A DNA stretch of 64,000 bases. Source: Spirochaetia bacterium. Lineage in GTDB: Bacteria > Spirochaetota > Spirochaetia > SZUA-6 > Bin103. This document shows, piece after piece, positions 3,618 through 51,764 of this stretch. Where the stretch lies: the NCBI GenBank assembly GCA_965203055.1, contig OZ241863.1, positions 3,040,001 to 3,104,000 on the forward strand, written 5' to 3'. The position numbers were made by a program, and so were the translations under genes. Numbering within the stretch: position 1 is the stretch's first letter; every line of letters starts with the position of its first letter. The notes beneath the pieces were generated by a model. It did not search any database. It was not told the origin of the DNA and was given only the letters and a program-made list of their open reading frames with translations.

Positions 3618-6443
3618 TCATGAACGCGCCGCGGCGGCGAGGAGGTCGTGGACGTCTTCGGGGGTTCTCGACACGGCGCATGACCAGCGGCCGAAGCCGC
3701 CGTGGTCGGTTACGGCGGCGCACCACTCCTTGAGATACGTGCGTTTGGCGCGGTCGCCGTCGCGGTCCAGGCCCTTCACTTCCATGACCAGCATGTCTCC
3801 GGTCGTGAGCCGGATCAGGAAGTCGGGGCGGTACTTGCGGACCACGCCGCGGTGCACGTAGAGCACCTCGAAGCCGAGATGATCGTTCTTCACCCAGGCG
3901 TCGACCGCCGGGTGGTGGTCGAGGGCATAGGCTTCCGATGCCTCCCAGGCGCTGTCGTACACGCACAGGTTGACGTGGCTGCGATCCGTGTGTTCGCACG
4001 GCTTGCCGGTGTACCAGGTGAGCATGTCGCCGGTCGAGCGGATCGGGTGATCGCGGTCGAAGATCGGCGCCAGCCGTTCCGCGTTCTGGAAGCGGATCGC
4101 CTGCAGGAGATGCTGCACGACCTTGGTCATGTTGAGCATCAGCATGAGCCGCCGCTTCACCGCGTCGCAGGCGAACGCCGCCGGTTCGATCACCACCCGG
4201 TCCGACTGGAGCAACTGCTCAGTGAGGCGCACCAGTTGCGCGACGAGCGCGGCCCGGTTTCCGCGCCAATCCGGCCGCATCTCGTCGTAGACCTGCTGCG
4301 CGGTCTCGAACACGATGCTTTGCAGACGGCGCTTCCGCGCCAGACGTTGCAGGTCGATCGTCGCGATCCTGGTCAGGTCGGGCTTGCCCTCCACGACCGG
4401 CGCCAGCTCCGCGACCCCGGCGGTCTGCGCCGCGGAGAGCGCCAGCGGTTCCACGTCGTCCCAGTCCACGGTCAGATGCGGTCTGAGCACGCGGTCGACG
4501 CGCACCACGTTTGGCCACGAAAGCGCGAACCGCTCCTTCTCCCGGACCGGTTCGATGGCGGTCTTCGGCAGCGGCGGCGGCGGCACCCCGGCCCGCGACT
4601 CGTGCGGCAGGAACGTGAACGGCACGCCGAAGACGTTCACGTACTCCGGCTCCAGCAGGCCGGTTTCGTCGCTGACGTCGTAGGCGGTGCGGCGCAGCCC
4701 GCGGCCGATCACCTGTTCGCACAGCAACTGGCTGGCGAAGGCGCGCAGGCCCATGATGTGGGTCACGGTCTTGGCGTCCCACCCCTCGGACAGCATGCCG
4801 ACCGAGATCACGTTCTGTATCCGTTCGCCGGGACCGCCGGCGCGGCCCACCGTATCGACCTGCCGGCGCAGCAGTTCGGCCCGCTGCCGGGCGTTCAGCC
4901 GGCGCCTTTGGCCCGCTTGACCGCCTGCCTCGTCCTGCGCGCCGGGACCGCCGGCGTCCGCGCCATCTTCGCCGACGGCCGCCAACGGCTCCGCGGCGGC
5001 CTCGGCTTCGGCCAGCGTCTTCGAGTCGATATGCAGCGTGCGCTCGGGATCGCACAGCTCCGCGATGCGGATGCTGCCGCGCGCGAACGCGTGCCGGACG
5101 CGCGCCGCGGTCTCGGTGCGGTTGGCGACGGTGATCATCGCCGGCGGCGTCGGGAACCCCAGCGCCGCCCACTGCCGGGCGGTCTCGCGCCAGTCGTACC
5201 CCAGGAAGTAGTAGCCGTTCAGCACCAGGTCCGGCAGCGGGTCGGTAGGCGCGGCCCGGCGGTTCAGGTCGTCCCTTACCTCCGGGTCGTTGTAGATGTG
5301 GTAGAAGCGGGAGCGGTAGGTCCGCGCGTCGGGCGCCGCATCGTCGCGCACCACCACGCGCGGCGTCTTGACCAGACCCGCCTCGATGGCGTCGTTCAAT
5401 CCGAAGTCGCTCACGATCCAGTCGAACAACGCCTCCTCGGAGCTGCTCCTGCCGGACGGCACGAACGGCGTGGCGGAGAAGTCGTAGCAGCGCAGGATGC
5501 CGCGCGCGCGGTGGATGCGGTCGAGGCCGCCGATCCACTTGGTGGCGGTTTCCAGGTCGGCCTTGGCGATGCCCCTGGTCGCGGACTGTTCGGAGATGCG
5601 CCAGGCGTGGTGCGCTTCGTCGTTGATGACCAGCAGGTCGCGGGCCGCGGCGAGGTCGCCGAGTACCGCGCGGACGTAGGCTTCGTCGCTCACGGCGCCG
5701 CGCTTGTCGACGCTGCGCCGCCGCGCGACCTGCGCCTCGGTCTCCCAGTTGAGCGCGTGCCAGTTGCGGACCACGACCCGGCCCAGGCGCAGCTTGTCGA
5801 GCAGCGCGGACGGGACGATGCGGAACTGCCGGTAGTAGTTGTCGGGGTGCGGCGGATCGAGGACCGCCAGCCGGCTCTTGACGGTGAGGCCGGGCGCGAC
5901 CACCAGGACGTTGCGGGAGAACCGGCGGTCCTGCGGATAGGCGGCCTTGTTCAGCACCTGCCAGGCGATGACCATCGCCATGACCACGGTCTTGCCGGTG
6001 CCGGTCGCCATCTTGGCGCACAGCCGGGGGAATGCGCCGCCGTCGCCGGGAACGTCGATGCCCACCCGGTCGGCGGCCGGCGCCTCGCGCAGCCACATCA
6101 GGGTCTCCACCGCCTCGAGCTGGCAGAAGAAGAACCGGCGCGAATCGAACTCCTCCGGGTCGGTCCAGTGCGCGAGCAGCCGCCGGGTCACGGTGGAGGC
6201 GCCGGGGTAGCCGGCGGTCCGCCATGCCTTGACGCGCGGGCGGATGGCGTTGACCAGCGGAATCTCGACCGTGACGCCCGGATCGTCGAACGCCCGCGAG
6301 TCGGGCGAAGCGATGACGTATCCCGCCGGCCGGCGGCCCGGCGCCAGGTCGAACAGCCGCGTCGCCCGGTCGTACCGCCAGTGCCGCGCCGGCTCCTCAT
6401 ACGGCGAGTTGACCGTCAGCCGGTCGATGGTGGTTTGCGCCAC
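3618..6443 (-). CDS. res: Type III restriction endonuclease subunit (BPTD_3080-like SF2 helicase-nuclease)
   Basis: FFCQLEAVET, Walker A MATGTGKT, NDEAHH, SATP, MLSEGWD, EQVIGRGLRR and C-terminal YRPDFL...EVKG nuclease motif; lies downstream of mod. Confidence 0.9.
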   Translation of the reverse strand: MAQTTIDRLTVNSPYEEPARHWRYDRATRLFDLAPGRRPAGYVIASPDSRAFDDPGVTVEIPLVNAIRPRVKAWRTAGYPGASTVTRRLLAHWTDPEEFDSRRFFFCQLEAVETLMWLREAPAADRVGIDVPGDGGAFPRLCAKMATGTGKTVVMAMVIAWQVLNKAAYPQDRRFSRNVLVVAPGLTVKSRLAVLDPPHPDNYYRQFRIVPSALLDKLRLGRVVVRNWHALNWETEAQVARRRSVDKRGAVSDEAYVRAVLGDLAAARDLLVINDEAHHAWRISEQSATRGIAKADLETATKWIGGLDRIHRARGILRCYDFSATPFVPSGRSSSEEALFDWIVSDFGLNDAIEAGLVKTPRVVVRDDAAPDARTYRSRFYHIYNDPEVRDDLNRRAAPTDPLPDLVLNGYYFLGYDWRETARQWAALGFPTPPAMITVANRTETAARVRHAFARGSIRIAELCDPERTLHIDSKTLAEAEAAAEPLAAVGEDGADAGGPGAQDEAGGQAGQRRRLNARQRAELLRRQVDTVGRAGGPGERIQNVISVGMLSEGWDAKTVTHIMGLRAFASQLLCEQVIGRGLRRTAYDVSDETGLLEPEYVNVFGVPFTFLPHESRAGVPPPPLPKTAIEPVREKERFALSWPNVVRVDRVLRPHLTVDWDDVEPLALSAAQTAGVAELAPVVEGKPDLTRIATIDLQRLARKRRLQSIVFETAQQVYDEMRPDWRGNRAALVAQLVRLTEQLLQSDRVVIEPAAFACDAVKRRLMLMLNMTKVVQHLLQAIRFQNAERLAPIFDRDHPIRSTGDMLTWYTGKPCEHTDRSHVNLCVYDSAWEASEAYALDHHPAVDAWVKNDHLGFEVLYVHRGVVRKYRPDFLIRLTTGDMLVMEVKGLDRDGDRAKRTYLKEWCAAVTDHGGFGRWSCAVSRTPEDVHDLLAAAARS

Positions 6444-25949: not shown

Positions 25950-26010
25950 CTGTCACCTCCTCGATTGCCGGAGTCTGCGGCCTAGGCAACCACCGGCGCA
26001 AGTGCCCGCC

Positions 26011-26640
26011 GGCGCACTTCCGATTTGTTGGTAGACCCTCGGTTTCAGCGACGGCGCGGGAGCTGGTGGAGCAGGCGTCCGGCAAGAGCAGCCGGCAGGT
26101 GATGCAGTTGCTGGCCGAGGTGGACCCGGAGCTGGCGGCGTCGGCGGATCGGGCGCGGCCCCTGGGCGGCGGGCGCTGGGAACTCAAGGCGGTGATCGAC
26201 GATGAGTGCCGGCGTGGCTTGGAGCGGCTCAAGGAGCTCCTGTCCCACGTTGATCCGCACCTGCCGTTGGGGCAGCTCATGGGGCGGCTGGTGCGGGAAG
26301 GGCTCGACCGCCACGACCCGGCCCGGCCGCCGCGCGGGCGGCGCGCCGCGCCGGCCAAAGGAGCCGAGCAAACTTCGGCGGCGAAGACGCGGCGCCTCGG
26401 CCGGCAGGCTGCGACGACGGGCACGGCGCGGGCTGCGCCGCCGGCGCGGACCGAAACTTCGCCAGCGAAGACCGGCGGCGCGACCGGGGCCGCTGCCGCT
26501 ACGTGGACCGCACCAGCGGGCGCCGCTGCGGCTCCCAACACCTGCTGCAGATCGATCACGTCGTGCCGTCATCTTACACTGGGACTTGGGCTTGGCCGCC
26601 AAGCGGCCTGACGCTTACCTACATTTTGGAAATGCGCCCC
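26011..26640 (+). mobile_element. Internally deleted copy of the HNH unit (both ends retained)
   Basis: Blocks near-identical to 30200-31193 are joined by deletions; TIRs at 26011-26033 and 26616-26640. Confidence 0.75.
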
Positions 26641-26799
26641 ATGACAGACGTCCGCTTGCCGTCAAGGCATCAAGCGAGCACGCTGATTCGGTTTGACGCC
26701 CAGACGGGCGGTGAGTCGATGCCGCGCTTGGGCCTTGAACCTTGAACAGACCACTTGCCCATACGTACCAAACGTGAGATATTGATACGTAGCAGCGTC

Positions 26800-27063
26800 A
26801 TGAGCACGAAACTCACCCTGAGCGTCAACGCTACGATCGTCCAACGGGCGAAGGAGTTGGCGAGACGGCGACGAACGAGCCTCTCCGGACTGGTTGAGGA
26901 GTATCTCCGATTTGCCAGCGCCGGCCTTGATGAGCGGCCCGCCGTCAGCAGCCGAGTTCAGGCGGTTGCCGAATCACTGCCGATGCCGCCGGACGCTACC
27001 TACGATCGCTTGCAGGAGCAGTACCTGCGGGAAAAGCTACTCGGTGCGGAAGATTCTGCTTGA
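26800..27063 (+). CDS. DUF6364-like RHH antitoxin
   Basis: MSTKLTLSVN..IVQRAKELA....TSLSGLVEEYL; overlaps the PIN gene; ATACGTA occurs twice upstream. Confidence 0.8.
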   Translation: MSTKLTLSVNATIVQRAKELARRRRTSLSGLVEEYLRFASAGLDERPAVSSRVQAVAESLPMPPDATYDRLQEQYLREKLLGAEDSA

Positions 27064-27508
27064 TTCCGACGTCATTCTGGACCTGTTCGTCTCGCGCGAA
27101 CCGCATCACACGGTCGCCTTGCATTTCTTCTCGTGCATCGATCTCGAGCGAGACACCATCAGCGCAACGGCGTCGCCGGTGGCTATGGCCAACGTCGCCT
27201 ACGTGTTGGCCAAGTTGAAGAATCAGGCATTTGCGGTGGGTAAACTGCGCGAACTCAGAACCATGATCGGGGTGTCTCCCATCAACCAAACGGTCGTGGA
27301 CCGTGCCCTGGCACGTCCGCATCGTGATTTCGAAGATGCCCTGCAACGAGAATGCGCGCTGGAGAATGGGATCGAGATTCTCGTGACTCGCAACACCCGC
27401 CACTATTCCAAGACCGACGTCGCTATCCTCTCACCGGCTGACTTCTTGCAGCTTCACGGCGCCGCGCTGGCGCTCATAGGCGGCGGCGGACCGGACAGAC
27501 CGACCTAA
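27044..27508 (+). CDS. PIN domain toxin (VapC-like)
   Basis: ILLDSDVILD, DFEDALQ, LVTRNTRHY. Confidence 0.88.
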   Translation: MRKILLDSDVILDLFVSREPHHTVALHFFSCIDLERDTISATASPVAMANVAYVLAKLKNQAFAVGKLRELRTMIGVSPINQTVVDRALARPHRDFEDALQRECALENGIEILVTRNTRHYSKTDVAILSPADFLQLHGAALALIGGGGPDRPT

Positions 27509-29543
27509 TCCGCCAGCCGAACCAGAAGCTGCTTGCCCTCCAGCGTTTGGCGCGCCCAATACAGGTTCTGGTATTGATCGTAGCCGCCCTCGCTCTCTGC
27601 CAACCTTGCCGCGCCGGTCGCGGTGGTACCGCCGGACGGCGCTGCCCCGAAGGTCACGGTTGGAGCAGTCGTGTAACCGCTCCCACGGTCCGTGATCGTC
27701 ACCGACGCTACGCGCAGCGCCGCAGTGCCGGCGGCCGTGGCGCCGGCACCCGGCGCCGCGCCAAAGGTCACGGTTGGGGCAGTGGTGTAGCCGCTCCCAC
27801 GGTTCATGACATTCACCGACGTGACGCGCAGCGCCGCAGTGCCGGCGGCCGTGGTGCCGCCGCCCGGCGCCGCGCCAAAGGTCACGGTTGGGGCAGTCGC
27901 GTAGCCGCTCCCGCGGTTCGTGATCGTCACCGACGCTACGCGCAGCGCCGCAGTGCCGGCGGCCGTGGTGCCGCCGCCCGGCGCCGCGCCAAAGGTCACG
28001 GTTGGGGCAGTCGCGTAGCCGCTCCCACGGTTCGTGAGCGTCACCGACGTGACGCCGGTTTGCAGCACTGCGGTGCCGGTGGCCGTGGTGCCGCCGGACG
28101 GCGCCGCTCCGAAGGTCACGGTTGGGGCAGAGGTGTAGCCGGCCCCCGCGTTCGTGAGCGTCACTCCCTCTACTCTGGTCGTCCGTAACGTCGCGGTGGC
28201 GCTCGCGCCGGTGCCCCCTCCTCCCGAAAACGATACGGTTGGGGCAGAGGTGTAGCCGCTCCCCCGGTTCAATAGGATTATGTTCACCACACTACCGGAA
28301 CTTATCGTCGCCCATCCGATTGCCCGGGTGCCACCGGCGGCCTGCGGAGCGCTGAACGTTACGGTTGGACCAGACGTGTAGCCGTTCCCCCCGCTCGTGA
28401 GCGTCACCGTCCCTACTTCTGATCGCAGCGTTGCGGTGCCGGTCGCCGTGGTGCCGCCGGACGGCGCTGCTCCGAACGTCACGGTGGGAGCGGACGTGTA
28501 GCCGTTCCCCCGGTTCCCGATCGTCACTGACGCGACGCCGCCGGGCCCCACCGCGGTGCCGGTGGCCGCGGTGCCGCCGGACGGCGGTGCGCTGAACGTC
28601 ACGCTGGGAACCGACGCGTAGCCGCTTCCCGCAGTCCCGACCGTCACCGCGTCGACGGCGCCCGCCGCGGCGCCGGTCGCCGTGGTGCCGCCGGACGGCG
28701 GCGCGCTGAACGTCACGGTAGGGACGGAAGTGTAGCCGCTTCCTGCGGTCCCGACCGTCACGGCATCGACGGCGCCCGCCGCGGCGCCGGTCGCCGTGGT
28801 GCCGCCGGACGGCGGCGCACTGAACGTCACGGTGGGAGCGGATGCATATCCGCTTCCTGCGGTCCCGACCGTCACGGCATCGACCGAGGCCACCGCGGTG
28901 CCGGTTGCCGTGGTGCCGCCGGACGGCGCCGCCTCGAACGTCACGCCGGGAACGGACGCATAGCCGCTCCCCGGGTTCGCTATCGTGACCGCCTGAACCG
29001 TGCCGACGGCGCCCGGCTCGATCGTGTCGGAGCCCGACTGATCCGGGGCGGTGAGCGCCAGTACCACTGCGCCCGCCCGGACTTCCGGGGTGACCGTCCA
29101 CTCCGCGCCGGTGAGGTCGGACGCGAAGACCGGCTTGGCGCTCGTGGTCGTGAACGGCAGCGGGTGCCCGCCGATCGACACCTGCACCTTCTCGCCCTCG
29201 CCGCCGGTGATCCGCTCCCAGGCATACGGCGCGGAACGGTTGGTCGTTGCGCTCAGCAGGTCCGCGCCGTCACCAAAGTCAGCCGCGCTGATCGTCCAGC
29301 TCTTCTCGGCCGGCTGGGCCGGCTGCGGGGTTGGCGGCGGCTCGCTCGGCGGTTTACCCCCCCCCCTTGGGCCGGGTCGGCGGTCGCGGCGGGCGGGCCC
29401 GCCGCCTGCGCGCAGGCCATCAGCATGGCGATACCGGCGGCCAGCAACAGCGATACCAGCGACGCTCTGCCCAAGATTATCCTCCTGCCGGGCGGTTGGT
29501 CCCAGGCGGCGGCACGGTAGCACGCGCTCCCCAAGCTGTCCAT
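27505..29543 (-). CDS. Surface lipoprotein with 12 GSGYxxxPTVTF repeats, frameshifted at a G10 tract (29357-29366)
   Basis: The upstream frame from ATG 29543 gives a hydrophobic signal ending LMAC. The downstream frame gives a Pro-rich linker and the repeats. The two frames join only if the tract is G8 or G11. Confidence 0.7.
27600..29005 (-). repeat. Tandem coding repeats, about 114-126 bp x 12
   Basis: Units of VxxVTxxxxGSGYxxxPTVTFxAxPxGGTTAxGxA; units 2-4 and 9-11 are near-identical at DNA level. Confidence 0.92.
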
Positions 29544-29684
29544 CCCCACATCGCTCGCTCGCTGCGGGGCGCACTTCCAATTTGCTGGTACCGATCCCGG
29601 CAGCAGCATCTGACGGAACGTCCAGCCGCTTGGAAATGCGCCGCCGAGTCACGCCCGCAGGTGGCATCTTCCGGGCCGAATAAC

Positions 29685-29713
29685 TTGACTCAAGTAGTTT
29701 CCATGATTATACT
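29685..29713 (+). promoter_or_regulatory. Sigma70-like promoter, probably leaderless
   Basis: TTGACT-17 nt-TATACT-6 nt-ATG(29720), with no SD. Confidence 0.75.
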
Positions 29714-29719
29714 TATATC

Positions 29720-31104
29720 ATGTACAATCAGGCTTCCGACGAGGCCGTCACCACTACCGTATCAGCCCTCTCAGACGACCGCCTGCTGGAGCGGACCAAG
29801 GAACTTTCCGGCATCGAACACCATCTCGAAGTGGTCGTGATCGACCACCTGCGCGAGATTCAGAAGCGCCGCCTGTATCTGCGCCGCGGGTTCTCGAGCC
29901 TGTTCGATTACGCGGTGCGCGAGTTGGGTTACAGCGACGCTGCGGCGTGGCGGCGCATCAAGGCGATGCGGCTCTGCGCGGAGGTCGAGGGCGTGCGTGA
30001 GCGCCTGCAGAATGGCTCGATGACGCTGAACGCGGCGGCGCAGTTGCAGAACGCCTTCGACCGGCAGGAGCGCAAGAAGGAACGGGCGGCGCGTAGCGCG
30101 CCGGGCGGTGTCGGGTGCGGGGCTGCCGCTCAGTCGCAGAACGGCTCGGCGCCGCCGCGGTCGGCGGAGCGGAAGCCGGCGCCGGTGCTGGATCCGGAGG
30201 CGCGGCGGGAGCTGGTGGAGCAGGCGTCCGGCAAGAGCAGCCGGGAGGTGATGCAGTTGCTGGCCGAGGTGGACCCGGAGCTGGCGGCGCCGGCGGATCG
30301 GGTGCGGGCGCTGGGCGGCGGGCACTGGGAGCTCAAGGCGGTGATCGACGATGAGTGCCGGCGCGGCTTGGAGCGGCTGAAGGGCCTCCTGTCCCACGTC
30401 GATCCGCACCTGACGATGGGGCAGCTCACGGCGCGGCTGGTGCGGGAAGGGCTCGACCGTCACGACCCGGCCCGGCCGCCGCGCGGGCGGCGCGCCGCGC
30501 CGGCCAAAGGCGCCGAGCAAACTTCGGCGCCGAAGACGCAGGCGGCCTCGGCTCGCGGCGCTGCCTCGGCAACGAAGCAGGAGGCCGGCGCGGACAGCGC
30601 CGCTCCTTCGGCGGCGAGGTATCGGCTCAGGCGGCGGCGCAGCCGGGAGACGAAGCCGCTGACCGCTCGGACACTTCGGCAGCGAAGCCGGCGGGCGACG
30701 CAACTTCGGCGCCGAAGACGCGGCGCCTCGGCCGGCCGGCTGCGGTGGCGTGCGTGGCGCGGGCTGCGCCGCCGGCGCGGACCGAAACTTCGGAAGCTAA
30801 GGCCGGCGGCGCGACCGGCCGCGCCATCCCGGCGGCGGTCAAGCGCGAGGTCTGGCGGCGCGATCGGGGCCGCTGCCGCTACGTGGACCGCACCAGCGGG
30901 CGCCGCTGCGGCTCCCAACACCTGCTGCAGATCGATCACGTGGTGCCGTATGCCTGCGGCGGCGGCGCCGAGCCGAACAATCTCCGCCTGCTGTGCGCCG
31001 CCCATCACCGCTACCGCCACGCCGGCGCCGGGTTCGGCCGCCCCGGCGAGGATCGGCAGGCGACGGTTCCGTTCAGCCCTACTGCCGAAAGCGTAGACCG
31101 GTGA
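29720..31104 (+). CDS. HNH endonuclease with DUF222-like N-terminal region; single frameshift near 30617
   Basis: N-terminal GFSSLFDYAVRELGYSDAAAWRRI. The C-terminus is in another frame: RAIPAAVKREVWRRDRGRC..C....LQIDHVVP...GG....NLRLLCAAHH. The linker has repeated ACTTCGGCG (TSA) units. Confidence 0.8.
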
Positions 31105-31221
31105 TCAAGATCGCCGAGAAACGTCATCTTACACTGGGACTTGGGCTTGGCCGCCAAGCGGCCTGACGCTTACCTGCATTTGGAAATGCGCCCAGTGCCC
31201 GCCGGCGCGCAGCCCGACATA

Positions 31222-31340
31222 TTGACTAGTGATACCATAATGAATACCATATGGCAACGGATATTACTATAGATCGTGTCGGACTCGTTGTGGTGCCGAG
31301 AACAGTTCTGTGACCGGGGAACTTGGTTCCTGGTACCGTT
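31222..31340 (+). pseudogene. Degenerate AbrB/MazE-family gene with promoter (paralog of 51460-51764)
   Basis: TTGACT-17-TACCAT, then ITIDRVGLVVVP, which aligns with ITIDRDGRVVVP. The start codon is mutated (ACG), and the gene is frameshifted and truncated. Confidence 0.7.
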
Positions 31341-51401: not shown

Positions 51402-51459
51402 GCCCGACGTCAGTACGCGCCGGCGCGAGTGCCCGCCGGCGCGCAGCCTGGATGCCTGT

Positions 51460-51488
51460 TTGACTGATGATACCATGGCGAATACCAT
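51460..51488 (+). promoter_or_regulatory. Sigma70-like leaderless promoter with ATACCAT direct repeats
   Basis: TTGACT-17-TACCAT-6-GTG(51495). Confidence 0.7.
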
Positions 51489-51494
51489 ATAGCC

Positions 51495-51764
51495 GTGGTC
51501 ATTACCATAGATCGCGACGGGCGCGTCGTAGTGCCGAAGCAGTTCCGTGACCGCTTCAACTTGGTTGCTGGTACGCAGTTGGAGATCGAAGCCGCAGGTG
51601 ACGGGCTGAAGCTTCGTAAGGTCGTAAGCGAGCCGACGCTGGTTCGGAAGAAAGGGTTCCTGGTGCATCACGGCACTGCTCGTCCCGACATCGATATCGT
51701 CGAGTTCATCCGTGCCGAGCGCGACGCCCGCAGCCGTCATATTGCCACGGACACCACGGATTGA
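51495..51764 (+). CDS. AbrB/MazE/SpoVT family antitoxin (no toxin adjacent)
   Basis: ITIDRDGRVVVPKQFRDRFNLVAGTQLEIE. Confidence 0.88.
   Translation: MVITIDRDGRVVVPKQFRDRFNLVAGTQLEIEAAGDGLKLRKVVSEPTLVRKKGFLVHHGTARPDIDIVEFIRAERDARSRHIATDTTD

Follow-up and report, generated by a model that had tools for sequence, protein, structure and literature searches.

How can a block of several genes move like a transposon when it encodes no transposase? This question is raised by a 5.2-kb block in the genome of a Spirochaetia bacterium (GCA_965203055.1, contig OZ241863.1), which we analyzed within a 64,000-nt window comprising positions 3,040,001–3,104,000 of the contig; coordinates given without a locus name refer to this window. 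The block contains two units that are bounded by terminal inverted repeats (TIRs) and carry only a gene related to HNH nucleases, with other genes between them. We read 26011–31193 as a composite transposon whose non-autonomous arms resemble mobile insertion cassettes (MICs) and were moved in trans, the HNH protein not being the transposase, and we assign this reading a probability of about 0.6. The composite nature of the block is well supported, with assembly by recombination as the main rival. The term "transposase-free", used in a preliminary description of the locus, is true of the element but probably not of its mobility. The features on which the argument rests are:

26001–26010, no strand: left copy of the target duplication, AGTGCCCGCC, read directly
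26011–26640, + strand: unit 1, an internally deleted HNH unit with both TIRs kept (26011–26033 and 26616–26640)
29566–31193, + strand: unit 2, an HNH unit of full length with left TIR 29566–29590 and right TIR 31169–31193
29720–31104, + strand: HNH nuclease pseudogene, N-terminal helical domains from the ATG at 29720, HNH motif in the frame 30355–31104
31194–31203, no strand: right copy of the target duplication, AGTGCCCGCC, read directly
31251–31313, + strand: decayed paralog of a MazE/AbrB antitoxin gene with a stop after 20 codons, read and aligned to 51428–51574
51420–51442, + strand: uninterrupted paralogous target site, CCGGCGCGAGTGCCCGCCGGCGC, from motif search and folding
51495–51764, + strand: intact antitoxin gene of the MazE/AbrB type that follows the empty site (PF04014, E=1.4e-10)

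A search with the TIR pattern GGCGCAYTTCCRAWWTG, allowing up to two mismatches, found four ends in the window (26011 on the + strand, 26638 on the − strand, 29568 on the + strand and 31192 on the − strand), against 0.13 expected by chance, and none of 100 shuffled sequences reached four. The two TIR-bounded units in direct orientation that had been described from the sequence are thereby confirmed; they measure 630 bp and 1628 bp. The 10-bp sequence AGTGCCCGCC directly abuts the outer TIRs of both units as a perfect match, and the inner flanks of the two units are unrelated, neither unit having a flanking repeat of its own. The duplication thus surrounds the whole span and neither unit alone, as had been proposed. 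Exact copies of AGTGCCCGCC occur four times in the window, at 26001, 31194 and 51428 on the + strand and at 30317 on the − strand within the HNH gene. Unit 1 aligns to unit 2 in four blocks of 90–95% identity and is a multiply deleted version of it, in which mid-domain fragments and part of the HNH motif are left in two frames. Since 26056–26401 of unit 1 is 94.5–96% identical to copies in a related genome and only 92% identical to unit 2, unit 1 is not a recent copy of unit 2. No transposase gene lies between the TIRs of the window, the HNH gene being the sole long open reading frame (ORF) of the units. The block thus has two IS-like arms (IS, insertion sequence), cargo between them, a duplication around the whole instead of around the arms, and a known empty site. 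The earlier suggestion that HNH units can move cargo as a composite agrees with this anatomy, with the 9–10-bp duplication that the block has of its own and with the empty paralogous site.

This site, about 20 kb from the block within the window, is paralogous and not allelic. The left junction (25993–26015) matches it at 22 of 23 positions. The right junction (31194–31336) is 76% identical to 51428–51574 over 148 bp, an alignment that begins exactly at the first duplicated base and extends into the MazE/AbrB antitoxin gene. Together with the PF04014 match of the downstream gene, this alignment bears out the earlier description of an uninterrupted site near an AbrB gene with a decayed paralog at the right junction. 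It had been considered that the site might be a common repeat of the repetitive extragenic palindromic (REP) type. However, CCGGCGCRAGTGCCCGCCGGCGC is present twice in the window (25993 and 51420, 0.01 expected) and in 0 of the 80 related loci introduced below, and the 10-mer AGTGCCCGCC with up to one mismatch is not enriched in the window (17 found versus 12.5 expected), indicating that it is no such repeat. The empty site is a GC-rich palindrome that folds into a hairpin with a 10-bp stem (−16.4 kcal/mol), which is weak in comparison with shuffled sequences (z −1.89), and the duplicated bases reach from the last part of the loop into the beginning of the 3' arm. The target continues with GGCGC, identical to the start of the TIR, as had been noticed before; other copies place GGCGC within the TIR.

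Relatives of the HNH gene provide further information on the ends. A word-indexed search returned 1633 homologs, many of them 85–95% identical and on shared contigs, and a genome scan gave 190, from which 80 loci (L001–L080, about 570 kb) were retained, all from metagenome-assembled genomes (MAGs) labelled Spirochaetia. The gene is present in tens of copies per genome, and copies within one genome have sharp common boundaries. It was found within three or more TIR sets that are unrelated to one another, and target duplications occur with each of them:

F1 (window type), closest genome: TIR GG(GG)CGCAYTTCC..., of the GG(GG)CGCAYTTCCRAWWTG type; both ends in 1 locus, L001
F2, several genomes: TIR GGGTCTTCMGGRWTTCGTGTGG; both ends in 12 loci; duplication of 8 bp
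F3, one 7.8-Mb contig: TIR CAGGRCYATCCCAYGCT; both ends in 10 loci; duplication of 9 bp

The F1 unit of L001 (2784–4364) is a single unit with a perfect 9-bp flanking repeat, CACGCGGAG. Perfect 8-bp duplications flank 4 of the 12 F2 units and 7/8 matches another two, with none in six loci, and left and right flanks mismatched between units as a control reached at least 7/8 in 0 of 132 pairs. Among the ten F3 units, three have perfect 9/9 duplications, four reach at least 8/9 and five have none (0 of 90 mismatched pairs at 7/9 or better); in L076, a 10-bp repeat is offset by one base. Duplications of F2 and F3 sit at unrelated target sequences, and their length tracks the shell (8 bp in F2, 9 bp in F3, 9–10 bp in F1), whereas the protein is one family. 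Perfect duplications also flank units with broken HNH genes (L028, L042 and L080); of the four F2 units that have a perfect duplication, three carry a broken gene. Partial F1 ends were found in L002 (left only) and in L003 and L011 (right only), and the remaining loci contained no end pair matching the three TIR patterns; a looser search detected at least one F2-like end in 31 of the 80 loci, two of them probably spurious. These ends and duplications support the view that the HNH units are genuinely mobile and have defined termini, in line with the preliminary description. Within 29566–29645 of the window, the core of the left TIR, GGCGCACTTCC, has an inverted inner copy at 29633–29643, and the left end of unit 2 folds as a long hairpin (z −2.95, equalled by 2 of 200 shuffles). 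The inner copy is retained in L001–L003 and L011. L002 was considered as an ortholog of the left flank of the window and rejected, as its PhyH gene is a paralog without a DNA match at E<1e-10.

Elements of the ISL3 family have an ISL3-type DDE transposase, TIRs starting with GG and 8-bp target duplications. A complete element of this family (1334 bp) is located at 88–1421 of L045, 1.2 kb upstream of an HNH unit. It encodes a transposase of 409 aa (PF01610, E=1.6e-67, plus the ISL3 helix-turn-helix and zinc ribbon), both of its TIRs fit the F2 pattern with 0 mismatches, and it carries its own 8-bp duplication, TCGAAGTG. The element and the F2 HNH units have about 70 bp at the left and 27–58 bp at the right end in common and nothing between. 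Since TIRs and subterminal sequences of F2 units are those of ISL3, these units are non-autonomous ISL3 derivatives, and by their sequence they are ISL3 shells with an HNH cassette in place of the transposase gene. Between two F2 subgroups, the HNH core has opposite orientations within the ISL3 shell. A transposase 100% identical to that of L045 is encoded on a 6.44-Mb contig with F2 units (17 member sequences), and one of 75% identity on a 6.16-Mb contig with F2 units. Of the two mobilizing enzymes that had been considered, the evidence therefore favors a transposase acting in trans, as the TIRs of a sister subfamily are ISL3 TIRs. The HNH protein as mobilizing enzyme finds no support: the duplication length follows the shell, the core occurs in both orientations, and units with broken genes are flanked by duplications. 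An IS transposase with identical TIRs, the finding that would make the units non-autonomous derivatives, was thus obtained for F2 and not for F1, for which none was found in the window, the 80 loci or plasmids. For F1, including the window, and for F3, mobilization in trans would follow by analogy.

The search for a matching transposase covered 40 ORFs of the window, 58 of 74 selected flank ORFs of L001–L017 and 135 of 143 selected flank ORFs of L018–L080 with Pfam. The only transposase-like Pfam match of the window was a partial YhgA-like stretch. Flank ORFs matched IS66, IS110, IS3-like, DDE_Tnp_1, Mu-like and YhgA-like genes, none of them with F1 or F3 ends, and TIR pattern searches for F1 and F3 in the window and the 80 loci recovered HNH units alone. 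When plasmids were searched with unit 2 or the F3 leader as query, only short chance matches came up. Transposase genes of IS66 lie directly against HNH units in L034 (4469–5953), L059 (1146–2630) and L072 (468–2090), in the last case directly upstream of a unit with its left part missing. The IS66 copies of L034 and L059 were rejected as cognate IS, as they end in their own GTAA-type repeats. Placing F3 in ISAs1 and F1 in IS903, IS256 or ISKra4, as the starts of their TIRs and the lengths of their duplications might suggest, is an assignment on which we do not rely.

The HNH gene itself does not look like a transposase gene. Unit 2 had been described as full, but alignment with intact relatives revealed a 1-nt deletion near 30617 that splits the N-terminal part from the HNH motif; with unit 2 frameshifted and unit 1 deleted, neither unit encodes a complete nuclease. 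Because the gene is broken, the long ORF of unit 2 had no match in Pfam or NCBIfam. Intact relatives have about 450 aa, and PF01844 was detected in 13 of 13 close relatives, so that the HNH assignment made earlier stands. The DUF222-like N-terminus proposed with it is weakly supported: Pfam DUF222 (PF02720) was detected neither in the window ORF at E<=10 nor in any of the 13 close relatives at E<=1. A profile of the N-terminal region (266 positions) matched 11,529 cluster representatives; of 30 sampled from these distant relatives, 25 have a C-terminal PF01844 HNH domain and three contain DUF222 below threshold (18.5–22.4 bits at a cut-off of 24.4). In a language-model search, the nearest named cluster to the N-terminus was "DUF222 domain-containing" (score 0.94), with PF02720 on 12% of its members. 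"DUF222-like" may thus denote a remote relationship, which is reasonable but unproven. The N-terminal motif and both HNH motifs are present in one open frame in 53 of the 80 loci. An F3 copy of full length whose 9-bp duplication is perfect (L069, 4500–4545) shows HN where the HNH motif otherwise has a conserved HH.

An AlphaFold2 model of an intact relative, built on 37 sequences (mean pLDDT 63.5), predicts an N-terminal helical domain (residues 19–126, pLDDT >90), a second helical domain with a hairpin (161–250), a long disordered linker and a C-terminal HNH beta-beta-alpha fold. Fold matches in the PDB were weak, all with E>1; they were to the HNH domain of Cap5 and to DNA-binding domains of the ParB/SopB/Noc kind. 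In sequence comparison, the HNH part matched the nuclease domain of a group II intron maturase (E=2.7e-5). Pfam, NCBIfam, the model and the PDB folds gave no likeness to DDE, HUH, serine or tyrosine recombinases and no RNase H-like fold, consistent with the earlier statement that no such motif is visible in the unit. A transposase hidden in the HNH protein was rejected on the same grounds: the missing Pfam and NCBIfam matches, the model of helical plus HNH domains, and fold matches with E>1 only. Rfam had 0 matches in L001, L028, L057 and L058, and in the window one chance-level snoRNA match (E=0.65) outside the element and none in or beside the units. The 5' non-coding stretch of the units is not conserved across subfamilies, and the 420-bp leader of F3 units contains no protein-like second ORF. 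A promoter-like sequence, TTGACT-N17-TATACT (29689–29722), ends 7 nt before the HNH ATG, and judging from this spacing the mRNA would be almost leaderless. The promoter block of about 45 bp is the sole upstream sequence common to all copies in the closest genome.

In the mechanism that we propose, each arm consists of a TIR pair of about 23–25 bp around one gene and contributes no transposase, and the product of this gene would combine helical, DNA-binding-like N-terminal domains with a C-terminal HNH nuclease. The directly oriented arms enclose a probable toxin-antitoxin pair of DUF6364 and PIN genes and a gene for a repeat-rich lipoprotein. A DDE transposase encoded elsewhere in the genome would have recognized the outer TIRs and moved the whole block, and staggered cuts by this trans-acting enzyme would have produced the 9–10-bp duplication. 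The HNH gene may be a selfish or accessory nuclease gene travelling inside IS-derived shells, of which both copies in the composite are already defective.

Several observations weigh against this interpretation. Transposases with matching ends were found neither for F1, in the 64-kb window, the 80 loci or plasmids, nor for F3, in the 80 loci or plasmids, and mobilization in trans of these two types therefore rests on F2. To the left of the block, the flank matches the empty site at seven more bases (CCGGCGC) past the 10-bp repeat, which together with the GGCGC continuation makes the exact cut positions ambiguous. The ratio of non-synonymous to synonymous substitutions (dN/dS), computed for three domains in four groups on intact ORFs alone with broken copies omitted, was 0.08–0.43 in all three domains of intact paralogs, ten of them within one genome, and such purifying selection is unexpected for an inert passenger. 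HNH clades follow the TIR type, with support of 100 for F3, 100 for F2 and 96 for F1 in a quick tree. Finally, at least ten copies in the closest genome have no recognizable TIRs, their common parts being the promoter, the gene and about 90 bp, so that the HNH gene can evidently spread or persist in other ways.

Rearrangements are associated with HNH copies as well. In L011 (2627–6909), cargo that is 97.5% identical to the window over 27955–29580 abuts an HNH unit at the base where it does so in the window, with the unit inverted, and the other end of this unit joins a duplicated 3' fragment of the PIN gene at a 7-bp microhomology, CTTGGAA. In L003, an HNH unit without a left TIR lies between direct repeats of about 58 bp (2829–2888 and 4378–4435, about 88% identical), which represent local sequence and are far longer than a normal target duplication. 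Taken together, selection, TIR-less copies and rearrangements suggest a nuclease with a selfish role, perhaps exerted via breaks and gene conversion. Five TIR-less copies of contig OZ241907.1 (L006, L008, L009, L013 and L016) share a 60–70-bp hsdS-like fragment about 100 bp upstream of the HNH start, which reads LRDQLLPR and resembles a conserved region of type I specificity subunits. The TIR-less copies in L004 (4300–5607) and L017 (1805–2893) abut ORFs with a Methylase_S domain. This association with hsdS may reflect a target preference or a fragment that is carried along.

These rearrangements lend some weight to a different history, in which homologous recombination assembled the block on site. 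A single unit would have inserted first, at the site upstream of the antitoxin gene, and made the duplication, and a second unit together with the cargo would have recombined with it later in a Campbell-type event, supplied by a circle or a distant locus, which leaves two direct units with the original duplication outside. Single units of the window type do produce 9-bp duplications, as in L001, HNH copies are points of rearrangement in the closest genome, as the inverted unit of L011 with its 7-bp microhomology illustrates, the unit of L003 has its 58-bp direct repeats, and the junction of cargo and unit at 29565/29566 is older than the arrangement in the window because it is also present in L011. 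However, identity between the two units is no more than 92%, unit 1 has lost much of its sequence and no recombinant structure can be traced, whereas composite transposition gives the same anatomy in one step. We regard this route as unlikely, while acknowledging that nothing in the present data separates it from composite transposition. We give even less credit to the view that AGTGCCCGCC is no target duplication at all and that two independent units came to lie beside a local palindromic repeat common to paralogous antitoxin cassettes. The similarity to the empty site extends 8 bases to the left of the repeat (1 mismatch, 7 identical) and takes in the first five bases of the TIR, and the site is palindromic. 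Yet the window has the motif at no more than two or three positions and the 80 loci lack it, the 10-mer with up to one mismatch shows no enrichment, the repeats adjoin the TIR ends without a single base between, and L001 and the F2 and F3 units repeat this arrangement with other, unrelated sequences, which leaves this explanation with hardly any plausibility.

The remaining question is which role the HNH protein has. It might itself be a new, DDE-free cut-and-paste transposase that recognizes the TIRs via its helical N-terminal domains, as it is encoded by the sole gene of every unit, its clades match the TIR types, its paralogs are under purifying selection with the diagnostic motifs in an open frame in most loci, and a cognate IS was found for neither F1 nor F3 in the window and the 80 loci. 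We consider this very improbable, as the F2 TIRs are those of a complete ISL3 element that lies in the same genome and encodes a DDE transposase, the duplication length varies with the shell and not with the protein, the HNH core occurs in both orientations inside the ISL3 shell, many copies are without TIRs, and units with broken genes keep perfect duplications, both genes of the composite being defective as well. A more tentative extension of the trans-mobilized composite that we favor, possible but on balance doubtful, is that the HNH gene is a protein-only counterpart of TnpB/IscB for DDE-type IS, a selfish cassette that installs itself in either orientation in unrelated IS shells (ISL3 ends, CAGG-type ends and the GGCGCA-type ends of the window). 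Cutting at sites that lack a copy, or at sister copies, would then lead to gene conversion and hence to retention or spread of the cassette, with the transposition step left to host transposases. A role in gene conversion would fit the description of REP13E12 loci as gene-conversion hotspots in M. tuberculosis (PMC13061034, in excerpt).

Among known systems, the closest parallels are MICs, non-autonomous elements that are moved by insertion sequences (PMC3281130, in excerpt). Like MICs and other non-autonomous IS derivatives, HNH units have TIRs around a passenger, no transposase and presumably mobilization in trans; the TIRs and the duplication length of a parent IS are seen in F2, whose parent is shown here to be ISL3. 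What sets the HNH units apart is their constant passenger, one nuclease gene that occurs within three or more unrelated kinds of ends and in both orientations, in high copy number and under purifying selection. As in IS-bounded composite transposons, two copies can flank and move cargo, but the arms in the window are transposase-less, and the whole block would depend on an enzyme from elsewhere. F2 units share TIRs and the 8-bp duplication with the complete ISL3 element of L045, whereas the window has TIRs of the GG(GG)CGCAYTTCC... type, a 9–10-bp duplication and no ISL3 transposase.

In mycobacteria, REP13E12, HNH endonuclease and DUF222 have been grouped as one repeat category (PMC10589994, in excerpt), and REP13E12 loci are reported to "lack defined biological function" (PMC13061034, in excerpt). 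The Spirochaetia genes resemble them in that they are present in many copies, have no defined function and encode proteins whose N-terminal region is helical and whose C-terminal domain is HNH, but the Pfam DUF222 domain is undetected in the window ORF and the 13 close relatives, and the hosts are Spirochaetia MAGs, not actinobacteria. For REP13E12, we know of no description of TIRs or target duplications. Transposase-less ISC elements encode IscB (PMC4810608, in excerpt), and a selfish role of TnpB and IscB has been discussed (PMC10055086, in excerpt). HNH units share with these genes of IS200/IS605/IS607 and ISC elements that a nuclease without transposase function occurs in more than one transposon family and that many copies lack a transposase. 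They differ by the absence of a RuvC domain and of Rfam-known RNA in or beside the units, and by DDE-type shells with TIRs and duplications instead of HUH "peel-and-paste" transposition. An HNH/His-Me finger endonuclease inside a composite-like TIR transposon is also found in KolobokP of animals, which is however eukaryotic and encodes its DDD/E transposase in the same element (PMC9587614, in excerpt). A free-standing HNH homing endonuclease gene was rejected as an explanation, since the units of the window, F2 and F3 have TIRs and the duplications of F2 and F3 lie at unrelated targets. Full-text searches of the literature, in which most sources were represented by their abstracts, retrieved no description of an IS-like element of bacteria whose sole gene is an HNH gene.

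Both cassettes without a transposase and composite transposons belong to textbook knowledge; what is unusual here is that one nuclease gene recurs under selection, in tens of copies per genome, within the ends of different IS families. If the nuclease aids the persistence or spread of its cassette, the idea of an accessory nuclease would extend from IS200/IS605 (TnpB and IscB) to DDE elements, and the very large DUF222-like HNH family, to which the N-terminal profile with its 11,529 cluster representatives points, would gain a testable role. A selfish cassette of this kind would also provide a function for the large DUF222/REP13E12-like families. The window illustrates how such cassettes can mobilize toxin-antitoxin and surface-protein genes within a defence and toxin-antitoxin island. 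The cargo enclosed by the arms comprises three genes:

26755–27063, + strand: DUF6364 protein (PF19891, E=9.4e-16), likely the antitoxin partner of the PIN gene
27044–27508, + strand: PIN-domain toxin gene (PF13470, E=1.6e-15), overlapping the upstream DUF6364 gene
27505–29474, − strand: lipoprotein gene with a TTG start at 29474, signal peptide, lipobox LMAC and 12 repeats of about 114 nt

From their domains, the first two likely form a toxin-antitoxin pair, and no Pfam family matched the lipoprotein gene. In the latter, a C10 tract at 29357–29366 places signal peptide and repeat body in different frames, which points either to a phase-variable tract or to a homopolymer assembly error. A 720-codon ORF that extends into unit 2 was rejected as an artefact of this frameshift, the actual start being the TTG at 29474. 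In the surrounding island, the window contains an AAA_21 gene with DUF4276, two N6_N4 DNA methylases, a ResIII helicase, Fic and BrnA genes, two AAA_14/DUF4143 genes, a Schlafen/AlbA_2 gene and the partial YhgA-like gene.

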